This document shows, piece after piece, positions 1 to 60,477 of a stretch of 60,477 bases of DNA. The notes below the pieces were generated by a model that saw only the letters and a program-made list of their open reading frames with translations, did not search any database and was not told the origin of the DNA. Each line of letters begins with the position of its first letter. Position 1 is the first letter of the stretch. Source of the stretch: a virus (Duplodnaviria > Caudoviricetes); IMG/VR virus record IMGVR_UViG_3300043407_000092, positions 1-60,477 of that record; one strand, 5' to 3'. Made by a program: the position numbers and the translations under genes.

Positions 1-127
1 TCGGCAGTTAGTTGGTCGTCAGACAATTTACTGACAACATCAGGCGTAACTTCTCCGCGAGCTAAAACGGCTGGTTGTCGCGTTGTTTGCGGTCTTTGCG
101 TTTCTGTTTGCTGGGCTTGAGCGGCTT
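1..127. repeat. 127-bp exact terminal overlap (identical to 60351-60477); circular assembly
   Basis: Bases 1-127 match 60351-60477 exactly. 127 is a typical assembler k-mer, and a reading frame runs through the join. Confidence 0.95.
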
Positions 128-1931
128 TAGCGGCATTAGCAACTTCCAATACGGTCATGGGTTTAGGAGCACGTCTAAATTTAGATGTAGACGCGGGAGG
201 AGCTGTCAGGTCGACAGATTGATCTGTAACCACGGGCGCAGCAGTTGTAACTACAGGAGCCGCAGTTGTAACTACAGGGGCAGCTGATTGACCGCTGGTA
301 TCTGGAAGAACACCAGCTTGTTGAACTGGGGCTCCAGTTCCGGGGGTAGTTCCACCAACTGTTCCTTGGACAGGAGTAGCTGATCCTGCAGCTCCCACAA
401 CTCCCGGAACGACAGCGCCCCCAGCTCCCACGCCTGCTGAAACTCCTGATCCAGTAGAAATTGGTGCGCTGACATTTGTAGCTCCTTGAGTAGCAGCACT
501 CATAGCGTTGATGATGTTCTGAACCGCAGCCTGTTTTATCAGTTTTTCCGCTTGTTTAAATTTATTTTGTGCAAGCGTTGTACGAACTGAATCTAGTTGT
601 TCTTGAGTTAGCTTAGCTTCCATCAACTTTGGTAGCAGCGTTAAGGTCTTGCCGGATGGGCTAATTCCCATCGAAAGCAGTTGTTCCTCATCTGCGCTAA
701 AAATTTTAGAAGCTGCGGGAGCAGTAGAACCAGCAGAAACAGGAGGCACAAGCGTAGCCCCCAGAGGAGCAGTTCCAGCAGGAGTAGTTCCAGCAGGAGT
801 AGTTAAATCAGTTTCCTGAGTTAGCAACGATGCCGTTGTTGGTTGAGCAGGATTACCAAACGCACTTAAACCAGCAGGATAAGTGCCGCCTAACAAATTA
901 GAATTAGCGTATGGGTTACCCATCAAAGCCGCAGGATCGGTTCCTGTAATGCTTTTGCCAAGAGGGGTTGGAGTATCCGGCTGAGTTAAATCAATAGCGC
1001 CTTCTTCTGGACGACTAGAGCGCAGGCCGCCTACACCACCAAAGACACCACCTAGGGCTGCACCACCAACGAACGAATCCAAGTAGCGCTTATTGGCAGC
1101 TTCATTAAACAGAGTTTCGTTGGGATCAACCGCCATACGACCGGCGTACTGGTTAATAATTTCTTGGCCAGTTTCGCTTAGACCTTCAGCCACAGCAGTA
1201 GTCGGTACAGCCACAGCGAGCCTACGAGCAAGACCGCCTTCACCTTGGATCAGAGGACGCATACCGCGGGCAAGCTGGCCCTCAATACCAAGGGCATTCA
1301 ACGCAGCGTACGGAACACCGCCAAGAGTAGCAGCACCTAGGTTTTCACCGCCGGCATCGCGTTGAGCAGACAAAATATCACCTACAGCACTTGGATAGCT
1401 AGCGCCTACAGCACCCGCAGTACTAGCGGCGGCACGAGTCAAACCCATACGGGCAGCAGTACCGCCAAGGGCTAAGCCACCTGTAAGACCGCCGACAACA
1501 GCTTCACCCAAGTATGGGAGGGACTGAGCAGCAAGACCGCCAATGTAATTTAAACCAGTGCCAATGCCGGTAACATCTCTAAAATCTTCAATACCGCCAA
1601 GGTCACGAGCGCGTTGGGCCGCGTAAGCAGCAGCACTTTCATTAGCCTCACGGCGAGCGTCAAACGCAGCAGCAGTATCAGTAGCACCGACTTTTCGAGC
1701 AACAGCACCGCCAAGGCCCAAAAGGTTTGCTTGATACTGGTCAATACCAGCAGAGACTCGACTACCGGCAAGGCCGCGCCCTGCACCGCTGTAACCTATT
1801 TCAGAAGCGTACGCATCAAGAGATGGGTAGTAACTTTTGTAATTTTGAAACGTACTCTGTAGAATGTCTTCATCAGTTAGATTTTCAAGACCACCGTTAG
1901 CTTTACGAATGTCTGCAATGGAACGTGGCAT
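1..1931 (-). CDS. N-terminal part of giant polyvalent internal virion/ejection protein (~2642 aa in total; continues at 60350-54353)
   Basis: Manual translation from ATG 1931 (MPRSIADIRKANGGLENLTDEDILQ...) is open to base 1 and ends ...KLSDDQLTAE, joining the track ORF MSDDQLTAE. It has Gly/Ala-rich hydrophobic segments and an AEGLSETGQE motif typical of large podophage internal proteins. Confidence 0.9.
   Translation of the reverse strand, partial: MPRSIADIRKANGGLENLTDEDILQSTFQNYKSYYPSLDAYASEIGYSGAGRGLAGSRVSAGIDQYQANLLGLGGAVARKVGATDTAAAFDARREANESAAAYAAQRARDLGGIEDFRDVTGIGTGLNYIGGLAAQSLPYLGEAVVGGLTGGLALGGTAARMGLTRAAASTAGAVGASYPSAVGDILSAQRDAGGENLGAATLGGVPYAALNALGIEGQLARGMRPLIQGEGGLARRLAVAVPTTAVAEGLSETGQEIINQYAGRMAVDPNETLFNEAANKRYLDSFVGGAALGGVFGGVGGLRSSRPEEGAIDLTQPDTPTPLGKSITGTDPAALMGNPYANSNLLGGTYPAGLSAFGNPAQPTTASLLTQETDLTTPAGTTPAGTAPLGATLVPPVSAGSTAPAASKIFSADEEQLLSMGISPSGKTLTLLPKLMEAKLTQEQLDSVRTTLAQNKFKQAEKLIKQAAVQNIINAMSAATQGATNVSAPISTGSGVSAGVGAGGAVVPGVVGAAGSATPVQGTVGGTTPGTGAPVQQAGVLPDTSGQSAAPVVTTAAPVVTTAAPVVTDQSVDLTAPPASTSKFRRAPKPMTVLEVANAAKAAQAQQTETQRPQTTRQPAVLARGEVTPDVVSKLSDDQLTA
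226..283 (-). repeat. 21-nt tandem repeat encoding APVVTTA (about 3 copies) in the giant protein linker
   Basis: gcagttgtaactacagg occurs at 241 and 262, with a degenerate third copy. Confidence 0.8.
272..475 (-). CDS. Nested +1-frame small protein A (67 aa, MSAHQFLLDQEFQQAWELGALSFRELWELQDQLLL...)
   Basis: AAGGAG (482-487) lies 6 nt before ATG 475. The product is helical and protein-like, while the host frame here is low-complexity G/A/V/P/T linker. Confidence 0.7.
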   Translation of the reverse strand: MSAHQFLLDQEFQQAWELGALSFRELWELQDQLLLSKEQLVELPPELEPQFNKLVFFQIPAVNQLPL

Positions 1932-1940
1932 AAAAGCACC

Positions 1941-3560
1941 TTACTGGTTCTGCAACTGGTTGTACTGTTCCGTTGTATAACGTTTTTTGGTCAGTGGATC
2001 AGTGTAGAAGTATTCTACGCCGCCAAACATTCCGCGTCGAGACTCTCGTAAAAAGTCTTCTAGAGGACCGCGAACAGCAGCTCCCGGAACTGTCATGCGA
2101 GATTCACCGGGTCGAACTTCAATTGGAGCAGTAGCTAGGCCAAGACCTTTTTTCTTATTGGCGGCTTGTAAGGCCGCGTCTTCGTTTCCTGCGGCAGGGC
2201 CGCGGCCATATAGTAAATCAGCTTCTATTTTAGCGGCTGGGTAAGACAAACCAGTATCAGTAAAACTTTTGATAGTGGCTGCGTAATCTTTAGGTGTGAA
2301 CTCAGGCTTTACTGCAGCGCCAAGAGACAACTGCCTACCGGGGCCAGCAGATGCCATGTTGTAGCTAGTTATCAGAGCTCGGCCTTTTGTGCCAATTTTT
2401 TCTTCGGGCGTAAGCGCGTCAAACTCTTCCTGAATTTTATCAAGCTTGGCTATCGTCGCAGAATCTCGTTTGAGTCCTCCAGCACGAACATTAGACAGAT
2501 TAGCCGCAGCGTTAGAAGCAACAATAGCCGCGCCCTGCGCATCAATAGCACTTTCTACTTTACGCAAGTTCATCATCCAAGAGCCTATGGTCTCAGGTTC
2601 AGTGGCTTGTTTATTTAAGTACTCAGTAGCTAGGGCTTCGTTTTTAAACGTCTGAGTGCCTGTAATGCGTTTACTTGCTTTGTCAATAAAGTTTAGAGTA
2701 ACTGCGCCGCCTTTACCGGGCACAATGGCTAAGTCAGTTTTGTCGTCAAAGTCTGGGTCAGAGTTGTAAAGCGAGCCAAGCTGAGTAAGGTTTTTGCCTT
2801 GTAGCTTCTTTTTAATATTGTTTTTAAAACTATCCATCTCAGCGTTTTCAATGCCCAAACGTGTAGTTACAGTCTCTTGCCACTGCTTTGGAGTAAATTT
2901 AAATTGTGTAAATGCAGCTTTTTTTAGTTCTTCTACTGTAGCGTCAGGACGTTCGGCAGCGAAGTTAGCAAAACCAGAAGCATTTTGCAATTCAGTTTCA
3001 GTACGATTAGCAGCTTTAATTTGAAGGCCGGTAAGGTCTCTCTGTTGAGCTTGGCCAGCAATTTGGCCTTTTACACTTTCTAATTGCAGAGGGCGATACT
3101 TAGCGTTGTAATCAATATCATCCGCTTGCTGCAAAAGCTGAGAAGCCCGAACAGGATCGCCGCTAGCACCAAGAACGCGGGCAGCTTCACGCATTTGTAA
3201 ACCGCGAATTTGGTCAGGCGAAAACTGGCCGGCTACTGTTTGACCGCCGTACCGCTGAACTTGTTGAGGGGCAAACTCTGTAGGAGGCGCAGGCATATCA
3301 CCCTGAAGGTCAAGCCCTTGTTTTGGGGTGTAACGAAGCGTAGGAGCTTGACCTGGGGCACCGGGCATAGCTTCAACGTCATAAGCTCCCGTTTCTTGCA
3401 ACCGTTGAATTTCTTTTGTTTGTTCTGGCGTGTAGTCAACATATGACTCAGGTTGAGCATAGGCTTTAGCCAAGCCACGTTTTAGCTCGTCTTCTTCGCG
3501 CATTTTAAGACCGCGCTCAACCGCTTGTGCGCCTACTTGGAATCCTGCTGCGAAACCCAT
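1941..3560 (-). CDS. Putative internal virion/DNA ejection protein
   Basis: Long helical Ala/Gln-rich ORF starting MGFAAGFQVG after GGAGG, located between the pilot-like protein and the giant protein. Confidence 0.7.
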   Translation of the reverse strand: MGFAAGFQVGAQAVERGLKMREEDELKRGLAKAYAQPESYVDYTPEQTKEIQRLQETGAYDVEAMPGAPGQAPTLRYTPKQGLDLQGDMPAPPTEFAPQQVQRYGGQTVAGQFSPDQIRGLQMREAARVLGASGDPVRASQLLQQADDIDYNAKYRPLQLESVKGQIAGQAQQRDLTGLQIKAANRTETELQNASGFANFAAERPDATVEELKKAAFTQFKFTPKQWQETVTTRLGIENAEMDSFKNNIKKKLQGKNLTQLGSLYNSDPDFDDKTDLAIVPGKGGAVTLNFIDKASKRITGTQTFKNEALATEYLNKQATEPETIGSWMMNLRKVESAIDAQGAAIVASNAAANLSNVRAGGLKRDSATIAKLDKIQEEFDALTPEEKIGTKGRALITSYNMASAGPGRQLSLGAAVKPEFTPKDYAATIKSFTDTGLSYPAAKIEADLLYGRGPAAGNEDAALQAANKKKGLGLATAPIEVRPGESRMTVPGAAVRGPLEDFLRESRRGMFGGVEYFYTDPLTKKRYTTEQYNQLQNQ

Positions 3561-3561
3561 A

Positions 3562-4512
3562 TTAAACCTCCAACATCTCAATGCCGAGACCGGCGTAATT
3601 CACTGCTTTGTAGCCGTCAGGCATTGTGTAGACCATGTCTGGGAAGCGTTTCTCAACATCATCCGCCATTACACCTAAGTAGCGCTGGCCTGATCCGCCG
3701 TTGTATTCAAACTCATAGAGCGGCAACATTGTGCGCTCATCGCGGCCAACTTCCTCAATATTGTTTTTGAGGCGACGATCGGAGAATTTAAATGCAGCAG
3801 TTGTAGCAGCTCCAGCCAATGCGCCGTAAACCTGACTTTCAGCATTAAGCCCTGTATTAAACTGGCTAGTCTGATTGTTAAGAACGTTGCCGTATGTTTG
3901 GCCTGATTGCTGCAGACCCTGTTGGTACTGTGAGCCGGGAGCCATAGATGTATTAATGCCAGCAGAGCCTGCGCCTGTCGCACCTTGGTACGCCGCAGTG
4001 GAAGCACCCGAAAGATTACGGCCAAGGCCGGTAACGTCAAGGCGGCGAGCAAATCCAATTTGTTCAGCTTGATTACGAGCGCCTGTCATAGCATTTGCAC
4101 GATTAGCAGCAAGACCTAGATTAGATTGATTAGCCATAGACATGGCTCGACCAGAGTTAGGGTTTACCCCCATAGACGCTTGAGCACGCTGAGAGGCTGC
4201 TTGAGTTATGCCAAAGGCCCGCCCGGCTGCAGCAGAAGCATCCCGAGCAAGATTTTCTCGATAGGCATCGGTATTAAATCGTTCAGCATCTCGAACAAGC
4301 CCCTGCTCTAGCGGTCGAAAGGTATTCTGCTGATAGCTAAAGTAATCCTGCGCTTGCTGCATTTGCTGATTTTGCGCAGCTATTTGCTGAGTAGCTACTT
4401 GTTGGGCAAGAGGAAGCAGGTCTTTGTATTGTTCTTTTGCAAAGGCCAACTGTTCAGCACCAAGCTCTTTCATTGGCCCATAGTCTGGTGCTGGTTGTGA
4501 TTTTCCGCCCAT
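3562..4512 (-). CDS. Putative DNA pilot/ejection protein with C-terminal intramolecular chaperone (peptidase S74/ICA) domain
   Basis: Starts MGGKSQPAPDY after AAGGAG. Gln/Ala/Gly-rich body; SDRRLKNNI...YEFEY...GVMADDVE...VNY is the S74 signature. Confidence 0.8.
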   Translation of the reverse strand: MGGKSQPAPDYGPMKELGAEQLAFAKEQYKDLLPLAQQVATQQIAAQNQQMQQAQDYFSYQQNTFRPLEQGLVRDAERFNTDAYRENLARDASAAAGRAFGITQAASQRAQASMGVNPNSGRAMSMANQSNLGLAANRANAMTGARNQAEQIGFARRLDVTGLGRNLSGASTAAYQGATGAGSAGINTSMAPGSQYQQGLQQSGQTYGNVLNNQTSQFNTGLNAESQVYGALAGAATTAAFKFSDRRLKNNIEEVGRDERTMLPLYEFEYNGGSGQRYLGVMADDVEKRFPDMVYTMPDGYKAVNYAGLGIEMLEV

Positions 4513-54352: not shown

Positions 54353-57300
54353 TTAATCTCCTGCGATTTCTTCAGCTAGTTTACGGGTTCCTTTGGTGTA
54401 CTGCACACCGCCAACCGTCATACGCTCGCGTTTAGCTTGCTCTTGCGGTGCTTTTAGTAAGTCAGAAAACGGCTGCAACTTAAGACCATTTTCTTGTCGA
54501 GCTTTTTGAAGTTTCGTCCACGCCTCACGAGCTGACTGTTTAGCAGCAGCATCGTTGTTCTTAACAGCCTTAACATAGTCGTTTTTAACACGAGTCGTGC
54601 GCTCTTGGAAGTTTTCAGTAACATCACGCATGCGATTTTGTCGCTCATAAGTTACAGTTTCTTTAACAGACGGAACACCAAGACCGGTCAAAATGGCAGA
54701 AATTGCACTAATCTCTTCTGCGGGTAACACTACATCACCGTTACGGCGAGTCATACCTTCAGCAGCTTGGCGTCCAGCTTTGAGCGCGTCGGATACACCC
54801 TTGGGCATAGTGCGCTCAATACCTTTGTAGTAATCGCCACTGAGAATCAACCCCATGCCATCGGCTACACGAGATACCATACCTAACGATGCGCCCCCTA
54901 CTAGAGTGCCAAATGCTTCTGCACGGCCAGCCGTTGTGCTGAGATCGGCGTCACTAAATGGCATGATAGAAAGCATATTGCCGGAGCCAATCTTACCTGA
55001 CAGATCAACGCCTACTAATGTAGGAGCGCCGCGCATAATAAGATCAGACCACTCAGGACCAAGAGCCTTCCGCATATCTGCTGTCAAATCATAAGGGTCG
55101 TCTTCGTCACTGAACGCTTTAAGTAGAAAAGCAACAGCCGCATAACCAGGCAATCCCATCATGCCAGCAAAAACTGCGGAATGACCTAATGAAAAAGCCA
55201 GTGTGCGCATGGCAGCAGCCCGCTCGGCGGGATTTGTAAACGCATCGCGCAACAGTTTGGCGTAGAACGCAATCTGAATTAATTGGAACTTGCGGAACTG
55301 CAGTGCAACCTTACCCCACTGGCTGTTAAAAACGCGAGGTGCATTCATAGCAGTGTAGTCACCATGGGTATCAGTCAGGATATCAGCAGCGTACTGCGTA
55401 GCCTTTTCAGCATCCTTAGTTCGTGCAAACTCCAAACGGTATGCAGCAATGGCCGTAGACAGACGATTGGTAGCTTCCACTTTCTGGACAGCCAGTCGCA
55501 TGCTCTTGTTTAAACGTTGTGCAAACTTACCTAGCTTGCTATCAGCATCAACCTTGTACTCGTTAATTTCAGTGGCTAAGCCAATGTCAATCTGCCCTTG
55601 GTTAACGAGTTTGGTAATTGCTGCGCGTACATCAGCAGGAACTTTTGAAAAGTCAAACTGTTGGTCAAACAACTTAATGTCTTTAAACAGTGGGCCAAGT
55701 TCAGCGTACGCATCAAACAAAGCTTTGCCTGCCTTAGTGTAGTCATGGCGGCCAGCCAGTGCAGGCAGAGACATCATGAATGGCTGTGTCAAATTCTGCA
55801 TGTAATACGCAGGACTAGAAGCCAAGAAGTACTTAGAAGCCGTGTTAGTCAGGCCAGTAATAAAACCATTGCCCTTGGTTTCTAAAGACTCCACATAACG
55901 CTTGGTTAGTTCGTCAAAGATTTCTGATTTGCGTTCGCGGTTTCCGCCTCGGCGATCATTACGCATTTGCTGCAATGCATCTTGGATCAACGGCTCAAAC
56001 TCTACGTTAGCAAGGAAGTTGGCATCAGCGCGACCCTGACGAGTAAACGACTGCAGCATATCCACTTCACCAGCTACCCCACGACGACGCATCTCAGACT
56101 TGCGAGCACTACCCTCTGCCAACGCCTCCAAGTACAACTGGTTAACGATGTTTAACAGCTTGCTGCGACTAGAATCATCGCGTTTGTCAACCGCAGCACG
56201 AATTTTGGTCAACGCTGGCAAAAGCGCCTCACCGCTAAAGGCTTCTTCAAATGCCGTAGCTCGCTTAACAATATCTGGCTTGGTAAATACACCTTGGTCA
56301 GTTAGGTTGTCGCTAAGGGTACGTGCCGCCCACTTGGTATCAACAAAGCTAACATGGTAGTGGTCTGGGTCGGACTCAAGTTGTTTGATACGTTTTGTAT
56401 CTTTAGCAATTTCGGCAGCTTTGTACTCTGCAGATTTACCAATGACAACGTACGCACCGTCACGCTTAATAGGTGCATAGGGTTTACCCTCACGAATAGC
56501 AAACAATGTTTGGAATCGTTTAAGCGTGGCAACTTTTTCAGCTTTAAGCGCTGCTAGTTCCCCTTCAGCTTTTTGTTTTTCCTTGGCATCTGTTGCCGTG
56601 TTAACCATGTTCTGAGCTGCCTGAATCATGGCATCGTACTCAGAGTTTGCAGACTTCAAGACACTTTGTTTCTTTTGAGACAAAATCTTGTCACCATGAG
56701 CAAACACGTTCTTAACAAACTTTTGAGCTTTGGGGCCTAGCTTGTCAAATGCATCACCCATTTTGTCATCGCGGTACTTGCCGTAACCCCACTTCAGAGT
56801 ACGAGTAGACTCAAACAAGAAGTCGTTAACACTACCGCGGCCAGCACCCTTGAACTCTGGTTCAATATCAGCGTAGCCATCTGCAATGCTTTCAATTTCA
56901 CGTTCAAACTCACTGACACGCGCTCTGCGTTGCGACAAAGCATCGGCAAAACTTTGAGCAGAAGTTAGCCCAGCGTCTACGGCACGTTTAATTAAGTCGC
57001 TTGTAAATACAACGTAGTCTAGGCCAGCGCCTGTTACGTCACCTAAAGCAAGAACAATATTGCGTACAGGAGACCGAGAAGCTTTAGGCAGCTTGGCAAT
57101 GTTGTTTTGGATTACCCCTTGGCTCGGCCTTGCCATTCTTAAAATTGCTGGCTGAAACGCCGTCGCCGACACTAAATCAATCTTTGCGCCGTCCCAATTG
57201 CGCCGTGCACGCTCCAAAGCGTGGCTGACATTTAAACCGCGCATACCATCTGTAAAAGGCGCATCGCCCGGGAATGTTACCTTGACGGTAATTTCTTTTT

Positions 57301-60300
57301 TGTACTTTGATTCTTCGTAGGATTTGGGGGCTTTCCCCATGCCCATTAACGAGTCTGGGGCGTTTCCATACGGAACGGCTGAAGTGATCCTTTGGGTTCC
57401 ACGATAGGCTTGAACTTGCGAGGATTCTGCTGTAGTTGCTGCGCCCGTTTGAGCATCTGCGCCACCTTTGTTTTGTTTTGCGGTTTCATCACTAGCCTCC
57501 ATAAAATCATAAGTAGCCGGTAGGTTATCTGCCAAATAGGCATTGCCTTCACGGGTGTTGTAAAAAGCCCAAAGCTGCGCAAAGACTTCCATGCGAGTCT
57601 CGTCAGCACTCATATTCTTAGTGTCGTTTCGGCTGTGGTCGAGAGGGTAGCCCATAGACCTTGTAAAGTCTGAATCTGGATTTTCAGCCATGTGAGTCAT
57701 AATTTCAGACACCACAGAACCCATAGGTTTAACAACACCTTTTTGAATAGTCAGATTAAACTCAGGCAGGCCAGAAAAAATACCACCTGTTGTAAACGCA
57801 GCATCTGCAATGTGGCCCAGCTCGTGATGAATAGCCCAGTTAGCTGCATCAGAATTAACCAGCATGCCAGAACGTACTGCCAAAGTCTGTTTACCGTCCA
57901 CCATCATAATGGCAGCGTCAAAGTCAACAGTGTCTGGGGCAACCATCCACAACTCAACGTCATCAATTACTTGACGAAGATCGTTATTTTCATAATGACT
58001 TAGCGCACTTTCAACGCCGGGAAATCTGCGCAGGCTAGCCTCGTCAGTAATTTGGCCATCAAACTTTAATGTTCCGGCAGTAACTTCAACCGTGTCGCCT
58101 TTAGTAAGACGTAAAACGCGGTTAACCGCTACATCAATAGTTTCTTCTTTACCCACTACATCAGCAGCTGCAACGCCTTTAGCGCCTTGGCCATCTTCAG
58201 TACGGGTCTCTGTGCGGGTCTCGGCAGCAAACATCTGAGCTGCTTGTTCTTGTGCATCAGGCACGACAAAAACCATACCGCCATCAAGATTGGCAATGTT
58301 GGGAGCAATCTCGTTAATAAAGGTGTCATGCTTGGTATTGATACAGCCATAGCTAACACGGTTGTCTGCTGCTGTAGGAGTATCTAATCGACCTAAACGA
58401 TTCTCAGACGGTGTGCTAGTGTCTGCAGCGTGGATGGCAATGTAGCCCGTGTAGTCTTTAGACTCAACCAAGATTAACTCTTGGCCACCAGCGTACGTAG
58501 ATGGTCTAGCTTTAAGAGTAAATTTACCAGCAGGGGTAACTTTTGCGCCGCCTTCCAAAGAAGACACAGCTTCCATCACGTCACCAGTATCTTTGCCGTA
58601 CAGCGTAGGGTCAGACAAAGCGTGTGAGCCATCTTCTTTAAAGATATGCAGCATGCCGTTTGGCTTGTCGGCAACCATAAACCATTTACCAGACTTCATT
58701 GCCACAGGAGCCATGGCTTCATACACGCTTTGAGCAGTCGGTGACATTTGAGCTTTAGCTACAGCAGGTACGGCTTGCGTTACTTCAATGGTCTGTTCAA
58801 ATGTTTTAGCAACGTTAAGAGCAAACGCATCTTTGGTAATGTTCGGGTTGAACACAATACCCATGGCAAGTACGCCTTCGGCCATTGATTTGATGATGCT
58901 ACGAATAGCACCTGCAACAGCTTCTGCACCTTGAGTAACATACTTGGTAATGTCCTCTTGTACTTTGCGTAAGAACTCAGCGCTGTCACGCTTCTCACCA
59001 TAGTGCTTTTCAAGACGATCAATCTGAGGCGCTGGTAGCGCGGCAACCTGTTGGGTAACCTGCTCATCAATGATGCGAGTTTCACCTTCAATGGTGACTG
59101 GCTCTTTAGTCAGCAACTGCTGCAAGCCCATCTCTTTGGCAACTGAGGGTTTACCATTAGTACGGACAGCTAAGTCAGTCAGGTAACCTTGCTCAAGCTT
59201 GTTTAACTGCTCGTACGGAACTAAGCCGGGTGTCTTAGCAGAAAGGTTTTCCCACAGGGCTTTGCCTCTATCTATTTGCTCTTCGGCTTGGCCTTGGGTT
59301 TGACCTTTGCTGGCAGGTTTTTCGGCACGCCGTACTTGGCCGCCCACTCTTTTGCCACCTTTGGTTTCTGACTGAACAGGTACGAGCGCTGTGCTTGTGA
59401 CTTGAACGGCATTTGTTTTCTCCAGTTTAGCCATCTGGACAGACAGCTCTTTTGTTTGACCGCTTTGAAAATCTACGGTTACGGTAGTTGCATCTCCGTC
59501 GCCAGAAAAACTTCTAACAATCCCAGTACCCAACTTGGGGTTTACTACAGTGTCGCCAACTTCAAAACCTTTGCGGTCAGCAGCGCGTTTAGCAGCGGCC
59601 TTAGCACGAAGTTTTTCAGCTTCAGCTTTTTTGGCGTCATCAGCATTGTTAACAGAAATTGATTCTGGCTCGGCCTCTTTAGCTGCTGCAACTAAATCAA
59701 CTTCACCATCCGTGTCTCCCAAACCAGCAGTTTCTTTAACTGCTGCTTGAGCGCGTTTTTCAACGGCGCGAACTTTGACAAGTTGTTCTGCCAATTTAGC
59801 ATTGAGCTCTTTTAGTTTGGCTTCATCAGTCTCAGCAGCCAAGGCTTCTAGTGTGGCATCAATTTCTTTTTGGAGCTTAGTAAAGCCTTCAACTTCAGAA
59901 GTACCAGCACCAGCAGTGTTTACAATATTTTCTAAGCCGCCCTCAATAGCTTCACTTTCACTAATTGCTGACGGTTGATTTTGCCCAAAAATCTCACGCT
60001 CAACGGCTGAACCTGTTACATCTTGTTCAAGTGGCGTAAATGCGTTTTTAATCTGCTCATCTGTTAGACCCAATTCGGTTCTGGCTTGCGCAACGCGAGC
60101 GGCACGAGCTTCAGCACCTGTAGCCCCTGCAATCTTCTGTATGGAAGAGCGAGTCAAACCATACTTGGCAGCAGCATTAGGCTCAGACATACCCATGCCA
60201 ATAACATCAAAGATAATATCGCCGTTGCGCTCACCAAAAATACGTTGTAACAAAACTTGACGTTCGTCCACAACAGGTGGATTACTGCGTTTAGTCTGTT

Positions 60301-60477
60301 CATCCTGCAACAACTTATATTCAGCGTCGCTAATGTTGATGTTTGTTAATTCGGCAGTTAGTTGGTCGTCAGACAATTTACTGACAACATCAGGCGTAAC
60401 TTCTCCGCGAGCTAAAACGGCTGGTTGTCGCGTTGTTTGCGGTCTTTGCGTTTCTGTTTGCTGGGCTTGAGCGGCTT
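54353..60477 (-). CDS. C-terminal part of giant polyvalent protein (HTH-like, Tudor, L,D-transpeptidase-like, zincin and PLxRFG domains)
   Basis: 2007-aa track ORF whose frame stays open through the junction to ATG 1931. Motifs: GDTVVNPKLGTG, IAIH...SYGCIN, HELGH, PYAPIKRDG. Confidence 0.9.
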   Translation of the reverse strand, partial: AAQAQQTETQRPQTTRQPAVLARGEVTPDVVSKLSDDQLTAELTNINISDAEYKLLQDEQTKRSNPPVVDERQVLLQRIFGERNGDIIFDVIGMGMSEPNAAAKYGLTRSSIQKIAGATGAEARAARVAQARTELGLTDEQIKNAFTPLEQDVTGSAVEREIFGQNQPSAISESEAIEGGLENIVNTAGAGTSEVEGFTKLQKEIDATLEALAAETDEAKLKELNAKLAEQLVKVRAVEKRAQAAVKETAGLGDTDGEVDLVAAAKEAEPESISVNNADDAKKAEAEKLRAKAAAKRAADRKGFEVGDTVVNPKLGTGIVRSFSGDGDATTVTVDFQSGQTKELSVQMAKLEKTNAVQVTSTALVPVQSETKGGKRVGGQVRRAEKPASKGQTQGQAEEQIDRGKALWENLSAKTPGLVPYEQLNKLEQGYLTDLAVRTNGKPSVAKEMGLQQLLTKEPVTIEGETRIIDEQVTQQVAALPAPQIDRLEKHYGEKRDSAEFLRKVQEDITKYVTQGAEAVAGAIRSIIKSMAEGVLAMGIVFNPNITKDAFALNVAKTFEQTIEVTQAVPAVAKAQMSPTAQSVYEAMAPVAMKSGKWFMVADKPNGMLHIFKEDGSHALSDPTLYGKDTGDVMEAVSSLEGGAKVTPAGKFTLKARPSTYAGGQELILVESKDYTGYIAIHAADTSTPSENRLGRLDTPTAADNRVSYGCINTKHDTFINEIAPNIANLDGGMVFVVPDAQEQAAQMFAAETRTETRTEDGQGAKGVAAADVVGKEETIDVAVNRVLRLTKGDTVEVTAGTLKFDGQITDEASLRRFPGVESALSHYENNDLRQVIDDVELWMVAPDTVDFDAAIMMVDGKQTLAVRSGMLVNSDAANWAIHHELGHIADAAFTTGGIFSGLPEFNLTIQKGVVKPMGSVVSEIMTHMAENPDSDFTRSMGYPLDHSRNDTKNMSADETRMEVFAQLWAFYNTREGNAYLADNLPATYDFMEASDETAKQNKGGADAQTGAATTAESSQVQAYRGTQRITSAVPYGNAPDSLMGMGKAPKSYEESKYKKEITVKVTFPGDAPFTDGMRGLNVSHALERARRNWDGAKIDLVSATAFQPAILRMARPSQGVIQNNIAKLPKASRSPVRNIVLALGDVTGAGLDYVVFTSDLIKRAVDAGLTSAQSFADALSQRRARVSEFEREIESIADGYADIEPEFKGAGRGSVNDFLFESTRTLKWGYGKYRDDKMGDAFDKLGPKAQKFVKNVFAHGDKILSQKKQSVLKSANSEYDAMIQAAQNMVNTATDAKEKQKAEGELAALKAEKVATLKRFQTLFAIREGKPYAPIKRDGAYVVIGKSAEYKAAEIAKDTKRIKQLESDPDHYHVSFVDTKWAARTLSDNLTDQGVFTKPDIVKRATAFEEAFSGEALLPALTKIRAAVDKRDDSSRSKLLNIVNQLYLEALAEGSARKSEMRRRGVAGEVDMLQSFTRQGRADANFLANVEFEPLIQDALQQMRNDRRGGNRERKSEIFDELTKRYVESLETKGNGFITGLTNTASKYFLASSPAYYMQNLTQPFMMSLPALAGRHDYTKAGKALFDAYAELGPLFKDIKLFDQQFDFSKVPADVRAAITKLVNQGQIDIGLATEINEYKVDADSKLGKFAQRLNKSMRLAVQKVEATNRLSTAIAAYRLEFARTKDAEKATQYAADILTDTHGDYTAMNAPRVFNSQWGKVALQFRKFQLIQIAFYAKLLRDAFTNPAERAAAMRTLAFSLGHSAVFAGMMGLPGYAAVAFLLKAFSDEDDPYDLTADMRKALGPEWSDLIMRGAPTLVGVDLSGKIGSGNMLSIMPFSDADLSTTAGRAEAFGTLVGGASLGMVSRVADGMGLILSGDYYKGIERTMPKGVSDALKAGRQAAEGMTRRNGDVVLPAEEISAISAILTGLGVPSVKETVTYERQNRMRDVTENFQERTTRVKNDYVKAVKNNDAAAKQSAREAWTKLQKARQENGLKLQPFSDLLKAPQEQAKRERMTVGGVQYTKGTRKLAEEIAGD
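57346..57489 (-). CDS. Nested +1-frame small protein C (47 aa, MKPQNKTKVAQMLKRAQQLQQNPRKFKP...)
   Basis: GGAGG (57496-57500) lies 6 nt before ATG 57489, right after the zincin domain. Confidence 0.55.
   Translation of the reverse strand: MKPQNKTKVAQMLKRAQQLQQNPRKFKPIVEPKGSLQPFRMETPQTR
59272..59412 (-). CDS. Nested +1-frame small basic protein B (46 aa, MPFKSQAQRSYLFSQKPKVAKEWAAKYG...)
   Basis: GGAG (59420-59423) lies 7 nt before ATG 59412. The sequence resembles free-standing small phage proteins beginning MPFKS.AQR..L...P.VAK.W. Confidence 0.75.
   Translation of the reverse strand: MPFKSQAQRSYLFSQKPKVAKEWAAKYGVPKNLPAKVKPKAKPKSK
60351..60477. repeat. 127-bp terminal overlap (copy of 1-127)
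   Basis: Exact identity with the window start. Confidence 0.95.

Follow-up and report, generated by a model that had tools for sequence, protein, structure and literature searches.

Three small genes probably embedded in the +1 frame of a giant polyvalent virion gene of a Caudoviricetes virus

Can the linkers of a giant phage polyprotein double as genes? The question is raised by IMG/VR record IMGVR_UViG_3300043407_000092, a virus (Duplodnaviria; Caudoviricetes) of which we analysed the stretch from position 1 to 60,477, called the window below. A preliminary description, made from the sequence alone, reported that a giant minus-strand gene of this virus contains three short open reading frames (ORFs), here genes A, B and C, each led by a Shine-Dalgarno (SD) sequence of the GGAG type and each placed in a linker of the encoded protein. 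All three lie wholly within the 2,642-aa giant ORF, on its strand, and each starts at offset 1 of its frame; the reported coordinates, strand, +1 frame, lengths of 46-67 aa and SD spacings of 6-7 nt were all reproduced (Table 1). So was the placement in linkers: A falls in a Gly/Ala/Val-rich stretch, B follows a Tudor-like match that stops one codon ahead of the B ATG, and C lies at the end of a zincin domain, starting at its 3' edge. On the comparative evidence set out below, A, B and C are probably real protein-coding genes, embedded at spacer stretches in the +1 frame of a giant polyvalent DarB/PLxRFG-like virion gene.

We counted SD-led ATG ORFs of at least 46 aa in the +1 and +2 frames of the giant gene and used 2000 synonymous-codon shuffles as the control, a check that the preliminary description had named. 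We observed four such ORFs against a shuffle mean of 0.46 (s.d. 0.65), and none of the 2000 shuffles reached four; the ORFs are thus in excess over codon-shuffled sequences. With the SD requirement dropped, 10 ORFs were observed against 5.3, and the fraction of shuffles reaching 10 was 0.0065. The density of stop codons in the giant gene is 0.045 in the +1 frame versus 0.106 in the +2 frame. Hence the shared +1 frame of A, B and C, which had been read as a system-level pattern, is confirmed as an observation but is partly expected from stop density, which explains it sufficiently; no special explanation is needed. When all SD-led alternative-frame ORFs of at least 35 aa were taken from 12 giant ORFs and clustered blindly, A, B and C were the three largest cross-locus clusters.

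We then compared selection on the two frames in relatives. As an unbiased set, we fetched 11 IMG/VR loci (55-90% identity) with giant-frame protein patterns that lie outside the small ORFs; B is present in seven of these loci, A in six and C in two. Sequences were aligned by the giant protein, and divergence was counted by giant-gene codon position. At positions 1, 2 and 3, divergence was 0.32, 0.20 and 0.15 in A, 0.28, 0.16 and 0.14 in B, and 0.47, 0.34 and 0.23 in C. Inside all three segments it is therefore highest at position 1 and lowest at position 3, which is the pattern expected if +1 is the frame that is read, whereas in the flanking domains it is highest at position 3 (0.43-0.56). 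The synonymous-site constraint that had been proposed as a check is thus present, with giant-frame position 3 diverging by 0.14-0.23 in A, B and C versus about 0.5 in the flanks. Ratios of nonsynonymous to synonymous proportions (pN/pS) in the unbiased set were 0.42 in +1 versus 1.62 in the giant frame for A (0.34-0.42 versus 1.47-1.62 across sets), 0.38 versus 1.41 for B, and 0.38 versus 1.31 for C. Control domains gave the reverse, with 0.21-0.43 in the giant frame and 1.0-1.4 in +1. The direction of both contrasts was identical in every comparison. In a 30-codon sliding scan of the giant gene, the share of divergence at position 3 fell below 0.33 only in windows starting at aa 490-530 (A) and aa 950-970 (B); the C segment emerges in the phase scan only when the three sequences that share C are compared. 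Among the loci examined, save those that lack the whole module, we saw no relative with a broken +1 ORF and an intact giant frame. Together with conserved SD sequences, starts and stops, these data support the proposal that the linkers double as genes: they show purifying selection on the +1 peptides in all three segments, and to a giant frame that over A, B and C appears to be under no amino-acid constraint, yet is kept free of stops.

At all 31 IMG/VR loci where it was found, gene A is nested in the giant frame. Its first codon, at one homologous site after the SD, is GTG in 24 loci, ATG in four and TTG in three, and swapping among the three bacterial start codons makes little sense unless this codon is a start. 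An AGGAGG-type 4-mer, read by eye, precedes this codon in all 31 loci, and the stop comes after a final LPL or LPV. At 29 of these loci, gene B lies 0.95-1.6 kb farther downstream in the frame of A; the remaining two end too early to show it. A first-start rule would lengthen A and C upstream, to GTG codons at 499 and 57609 respectively, but the starts kept in relatives are the ATGs of the preliminary description. For A, Pfam returned nothing at E ≤ 10, and an Atlas search gave no usable feature match; its structure matches were disregarded, being based on a poor model. We infer that A is an acidic helical partner that is always paired with B in this clade.

Four of the 11 unbiased loci (L006, L007, L008 and L011) carry none of A, B and C and share only the region that matches giant-protein residues ~1057-1383, despite having about 975 aa upstream. 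Since they extend upstream and still lack the three ORFs, the A-B module appears to belong to a swappable N-terminal half of the giant gene. Three of these four giant frames have, close to their start, an SD-led +1 ORF that clusters across them; the three may be merely close relatives. In the window, all three forward frames of the minus strand are open over gene A (272-520), and the open run in +2 exceeds 100 codons. The Gly/Ala/Val-rich composition probably accounts for this; in the +2 frame of the whole giant gene, no ORF of at least 35 aa that starts with ATG, GTG or TTG is listed.

Gene B belongs to a large family. Ten called homologues have 42-80 aa. In IMG/VR, a pattern scan detected a relative encoded in at least 287 stretches, of which the best 80 were kept, and a profile search of 1.84 billion cluster representatives gave 4,476 matches to the B family at E ≤ 1e-3, 990 of them at E ≤ 1e-10. 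The matched proteins have 48-980 aa, and of the 150 matches listed, 138 begin within residues 1-3. The family, which we call MPFKSKAQ, opens with M-P-F-K-S-x-x-Q at the N terminus and further shows two helices in which a P and an A-K are conserved, an L-P motif and a tail that is basic, and B has all of these; M1, P2, F3, S5, Q8, P17 and A20 are invariant in 67 aligned sequences. AlphaFold2 predicts B as a two-helix hairpin (residues 6-15 and 17-27) with an extended basic tail, at a predicted local distance difference test (pLDDT) score of 82. In the Atlas, the nearest cluster with a Pfam assignment carries the label DUF3008 (score 0.84, 37% of members), a weak lead, and we found no literature on DUF3008.

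At the 85 distinct loci with B, all copies start at family residue 1, with ATG in 84 and GTG in one. Twenty-four copies lie inside open frames of at least 1000 aa and 11 inside ORFs of 400-450 aa, and another 39 stand free, their equivalent frame being closed. All nested copies occupy the +1 frame of the ORF around them, whereas free-standing copies have about three stops in the host-equivalent frame. For Phe3, all 35 nested copies use TTC; among the 39 free ones this codon is TTT in 23, TTC in 15 and CTA in one. The fixed TTC of the nested copies and the stops of the free copies suggest that the host frame is actively kept open over B. Upstream of the B ATG, GGAG or GGGG persists where giant-frame residues differ (KLEKTN, PVGEPD, EEGDEN).

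Since free-standing homologues exist, B would be a captured, widespread gene that predates its nested position. At one locus (L074) an approximately 410-aa host of B occupies the scaffold position, with the portal gene on one side and a gene for a virion structural protein on the other, and free-standing B follows a portal-like gene in two further loci. We infer that B began as an independent gene of the head-morphogenesis module, older than its nesting, and that the giant ORF, and elsewhere the ~410-aa gene, came to read through it. The ~410-aa host proteins and a 125-aa one have no PHROG match and no Pfam family of note.

It had been predicted that standard gene callers would miss such ORFs, and B bears this out in a deposited genome. 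Flavobacterium phage elemoA_1-9A (L126, MT497075.1) contains an unannotated 42-aa MPFKSKAQ ORF at 3582-3710, in the +1 frame of an 11-kb 'structural protein' gene. It was found by tblastn with a longer family member (E 0.04) and confirmed by reading the ORF; tblastn of B itself against the phage collection gave nothing at E ≤ 0.01. A truncated second start copy (MPFKSKKLMK, then a stop) lies in the same +1 frame at 3186-3218, 396 bp upstream, and may be the remnant of a duplicated module.

In many longer members of the B family (P0024, P0053, P0122) the MPFKSKAQ module forms the N-terminal 45 residues, followed by Gly/Ala-rich, glycine-zipper-like stretches. DUF5661 follows the module in two of 10 tested proteins, at E 8.4e-8 (above the Pfam cut-off) and E 2.7e-4 (below it). 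In these longer proteins the module may be an N-terminal targeting or docking piece. We rejected the idea that their C-terminal parts correspond to the Gly/Ala-rich N-terminal part of the giant protein, as the best BLASTP matches had E 0.42 and 1.2.

Gene C tracks the zincin domain. It is present in every relative that has this domain (L009, L010 and L128; L127, L129 and L130 are near-copies) and absent from four of four relatives with other domains at that place (L001, L003, L004 and L005), a small sample. Its GGAG, ATG and frame are kept in four of four further contigs (L009, L010, L128 and L130), and further IMG/VR scans for C or the zincin returned the same two contigs only. Pfam gave C only a meaningless DUF865 match and PHROGs weak matches only, with no sequence relation to a known inhibitor family.

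The preliminary description had suggested that the small ORFs encode inhibitors of the neighbouring domains and that complex prediction could examine this. We ran such predictions for C with the zincin domain. The complex model scored 0.74, against 0.02 for the best of three controls. Of 80 solved complexes 58 attained this mark, as did two of 110 mismatched pairs; these counts hold only roughly for our model, which was built on shallow alignments of our own. Three runs gave 0.74, 0.83 and 0.01, with contacts agreeing in at least 36% and a partner pLDDT of at least 38. In the confidently modelled interface, C residues 26-40, which hold a conserved IVE..GSL.PF motif, face zincin residues 63-71 and 92-101, including HELGH, and an invariant Glu of C lies near HELGH. 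A substrate or pseudo-substrate inhibitor of a zincin would lie along the cleft as modelled C does. Binding is thus supported in the model in two of the three runs, and for C the suggested role gains partial support from its occurrence only with the zincin domain and its modelled place in the active-site cleft. We tentatively propose, as an idea that falls somewhat short of an even chance, that C acts on the adjacent zincin domain as its cognate pseudo-substrate inhibitor, like an immunity gene beside an internal effector domain.

Could the three ORFs be something other than genes in use? If they were chance open frames, with SD-like words that happen to be encoded by giant-frame residues, the stop-poor +1 frame would provide the opportunity, since at 0.045 stops per codon it holds 15 ORFs of at least 35 aa. 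The fourth SD-led ORF of our count (56478-56302) is indeed such a case: in relatives its pN/pS is 0.34 in the giant frame and 1.25 in +1, an ordinary constraint on the giant frame and none in +1, and we rejected it as a gene. For A, B and C, the shuffles, the +1-specific selection with conserved starts and stops, and the thousands of B homologues make chance extremely improbable. Conservation of a nucleic-acid element, such as an RNA structure, an internal promoter or a packaging or regulatory site, would also lower divergence at giant-frame position 3, as would any overlapping function. However, the variation has a 3-nt period phased to +1 (position 2 < 1 < 3) with pN/pS of 0.38-0.42, the A start codon changes solely among ATG, GTG and TTG, and B homologues occur as free-standing ORFs and at protein N-termini; this explanation is very unlikely.

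Two further explanations accept that the +1 segments once were, or are, coding. Programmed +1 ribosomal frameshifting could reach them from the giant ORF, with which they share strand and mRNA, and yield truncated isoforms with alternative C-termini; in the window, +1 is open for 20 codons upstream of the B ATG and 40 upstream of the C ATG. This upstream opening for B shrinks to 3-6 codons in L003, L004, L010 and L016 and to 0-4 codons in several loci, however, and the initiator Met and the SD are conserved, the B family always starts M-P-F-K-S at protein N-termini, and the first codon of A is always a legitimate start. We accordingly give frameshifting very little credence. Alternatively, A, B and C may be captured genes that are now silent relics, across which the giant ORF grew. 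The preliminary description had raised gene capture of this kind, and the free-standing homologues of B favour the capture, but not the relic: relics would gather stops and frameshifts, whereas purifying selection on +1 persists across lineages with pS of about 0.4-0.66, B included, and the A start, SD and stop are maintained at all 31 loci. Silent relics are improbable, if less so than chance.

Several observations weigh against reading A, B and C as genes in use, or against the roles proposed for them. The larger A and B sets were fetched with the +1 peptides, which favours +1 conservation, and only the 11-locus set is unbiased; pN/pS values are simple Nei-Gojobori proportions, pooled over non-independent pairs and uncorrected for overlap. 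The evidence on C comes from four distinct sequences of about three lineages, one of the three complex runs scored 0.01, and the fold of C itself is uncertain. Structure in the mRNA near the three starts is only slightly below background (26th, 9th and 35th percentiles). An SD-like 4-mer precedes B in 12 of 24 giant-nested copies and in 0 of 11 copies in ~410-aa hosts, which may do without an SD. Pfam has no family for B at E ≤ 10, DUF3008 (PF11450) included, and Foldseek of the B model against the PDB found nothing at E ≤ 0.001. The match of B to phrog_1375 (function unknown) is weak (E 0.047), while eight of eight other family members match it at E 7e-6 to 7e-4, over the N-terminal helices. 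That B is a small basic head or virion-associated protein is a guess from context, possible but somewhat doubtful. Gene A is predicted as three helices at low confidence (pLDDT 61.6), and its relatives occur only in the nested context, with none outside. Translation of all three is predicted from sequence, and the RNA-library contigs of relatives show only that related DNA or RNA is present.

If A, B and C are genes, the late mRNA of the giant gene would be read in two ways. Ribosomes starting at 1931 would make the polyprotein, and internal initiation at the three SD-led starts would yield the A, B and C peptides, co-expressed with it. The giant protein would use the A, B and C stretches as spacers only; large hydrophobic residues make up 3-8% of the giant-frame segments over them versus 20% of the whole protein, and pN/pS there exceeds 1. 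Because no more than spacers would be needed there, the DNA would be left free to serve the small genes. Giant polyvalent genes in general might then be composite loci, whose linkers systematically hide small +1 genes that service the polyprotein, a generalization that we regard as unlikely at present. Such genes might be of two kinds: cognate inhibitors that silence internal effector domains, here the zincin, until ejection, and head-module proteins that were captured, B for example, whose synthesis would keep pace with that of the polyprotein. For a domain in the middle of an ORF, embedding would be the only way to keep an adjacent immunity gene.

Embedded genes with products of their own are known from other phages. 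In lambda, the Rz1 gene lies wholly inside Rz, on the same strand and in +1, and has a separate ribosome-binding site; the phage makes use of both proteins. The Rz1 product, a lipoprotein, carries a signal peptide and a lipobox Cys. Genes A, B and C share this arrangement of nesting, strand, +1 frame and own SD. Unlike Rz1, they contain no Cys and no signal-like N-terminus, and unlike Rz/Rz1 there are three embedded genes in one host, which is a giant virion protein gene rather than a lysis gene and whose frame is apparently unconstrained. In small viruses, overprinting is exemplified by phiX174, with B in A, E in D, and K, where two frames of one stretch code and one of them is compositionally odd or disordered. 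The present case is similar, in that both frames of one stretch would code and one is compositionally odd or disordered. In classic overprinting, however, the embedded frame is the novel one and genome-size pressure is usually invoked, whereas here the embedded B would be the old gene and the giant-gene linker the newcomer, in a genome of 60 kb, without the usual size pressure. Polymorphic toxin cassettes pair an effector domain with an adjacent immunity gene, and inhibitors or pro-peptides of metalloproteases occupy the cleft. Gene C resembles such a partner in lying directly 3' of the zincin domain, in being inherited only with it and in being modelled in the catalytic cleft; it differs in that the candidate inhibitor is embedded out of frame within the same ORF instead of downstream. 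In the literature that we searched, supplements aside, no description of small genes within polyvalent protein genes turned up. What is new relative to known embedded genes is thus their number, three per host, their position in linkers of a polyvalent protein and, at least for B, an embedded partner that would be the older one.

Gene callers forbid embedded ORFs, and routine annotation therefore misses A, B and C. The B family, with thousands of cluster representatives, has neither name nor function. The case of B would reverse classic overprinting, and it suggests that fusion across small genes, which remain functional, is how giant polyvalent genes grow; if general, giant phage genes would grow by reading through small genes without killing them. 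If C does inhibit the zincin, embedded linker genes would become a source of inhibitors or immunity partners for effector domains that lie within polyproteins, partners that are invisible to gene-neighbourhood methods. Scans for +1 constraint in the linkers of polyvalent and polymorphic effector genes would then, if this holds generally, yield inhibitors of many uncharacterised effector domains. The underlying approach, following flips in the codon phase of substitution along an alignment, picked out the A, B and C segments with no foreknowledge of them and could be applied to every giant phage gene.

The giant gene itself runs across the ends of the window. Positions 1-127 are identical to 60351-60477; this 127-bp repeat is an assembly overlap, and the genome is circular or terminally redundant, with 60,350 bp. 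IMG/VR classes it as complete, with direct terminal repeats. On the minus strand, the gene reads from 1931 to 1 and then from 60350 to 54353, as one ORF of 7,929 nt. Since it spans the circle junction, linear gene calling splits it into two open-ended ORFs whose frames apparently differ. It is the last gene of a structural operon with terminase, portal-like, major head, tail-fibre, internal-virion and ejection-protein genes. The zincin domain weakly resembles the lethal-factor (ATLF) peptidase family (Pfam E 0.013, short of the cut-off; PDB profile E 0.004). The Tudor-like, YkuD-like, zincin and DarB/PLxRFG-like parts fit the class of polyvalent proteins of phages and conjugative elements (Iyer et al. 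2017, PMC5512222), giant polypeptides that combine several unrelated effector-type domains, with Pfam scores that are under their cut-offs, and the position of the gene at the end of a virion and ejection-protein module agrees with that account. In the main text of that paper, the words 'overlapping' and 'frameshift' occur 0 times, and embedded genes fall outside the architecture described there.

Table 1. Features of the giant gene and its nested ORFs, in window coordinates
Feature	Position	Strand	Details
Gene A	272..475	-	+1 frame of giant gene; 67 aa; acidic, isoelectric point (pI) 4.2
SD of gene A	482..487	-	AAGGAG; 6-nt spacer to ATG
Gene B	59272..59412	-	+1 frame of giant gene; 46 aa; basic, pI 10.6
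SD of gene B	59420..59423	-	GGAG; 7-nt spacer to ATG
Gene C	57346..57489	-	+1 frame of giant gene; 47 aa; basic, pI 11.6
SD of gene C	57496..57500	-	GGAGG; 6-nt spacer to ATG
Fourth SD-led ATG ORF	56302..56478	-	+1 frame; 58 aa; inside DarB/PLxRFG-like region
Giant gene, 5' part	1..1931	-	ATG at 1931; continues over circle junction
Giant gene, 3' part	54353..60477	-	60351-60477 duplicates 1-127
Tudor-like domain of giant protein	59417..59560	-	PcrA_UvrD_tudor; E 9.7e-5; 22.6 bits, just under the cut-off of 23.9
YkuD-like L,D-transpeptidase domain of giant protein	58292..58678	-	E 0.0011; 20 bits, under the cut-off of 23.4
Zincin (HExxH) domain of giant protein	57482..58114	-	giant-protein residues ~1390-1600; HELGH at 57826-57812
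DarB-like/PLxRFG region of giant protein	54404..56749	-	C-terminal; 33 cultured-phage records, 23-29% identity, E down to 4e-43

Short RNA-library contigs of relatives cover B in three of four runs, and none covers 57300-58113, which contains C; only small shares of the sampled words of these libraries matched, so that neither transcription nor its absence follows. Three of the four differences listed in B among these contigs fall on third codon positions of B. Several freshwater metagenome runs, of which four may be where this DNA came from, contain DNA nearly identical to positions 57300-59500 of the window.

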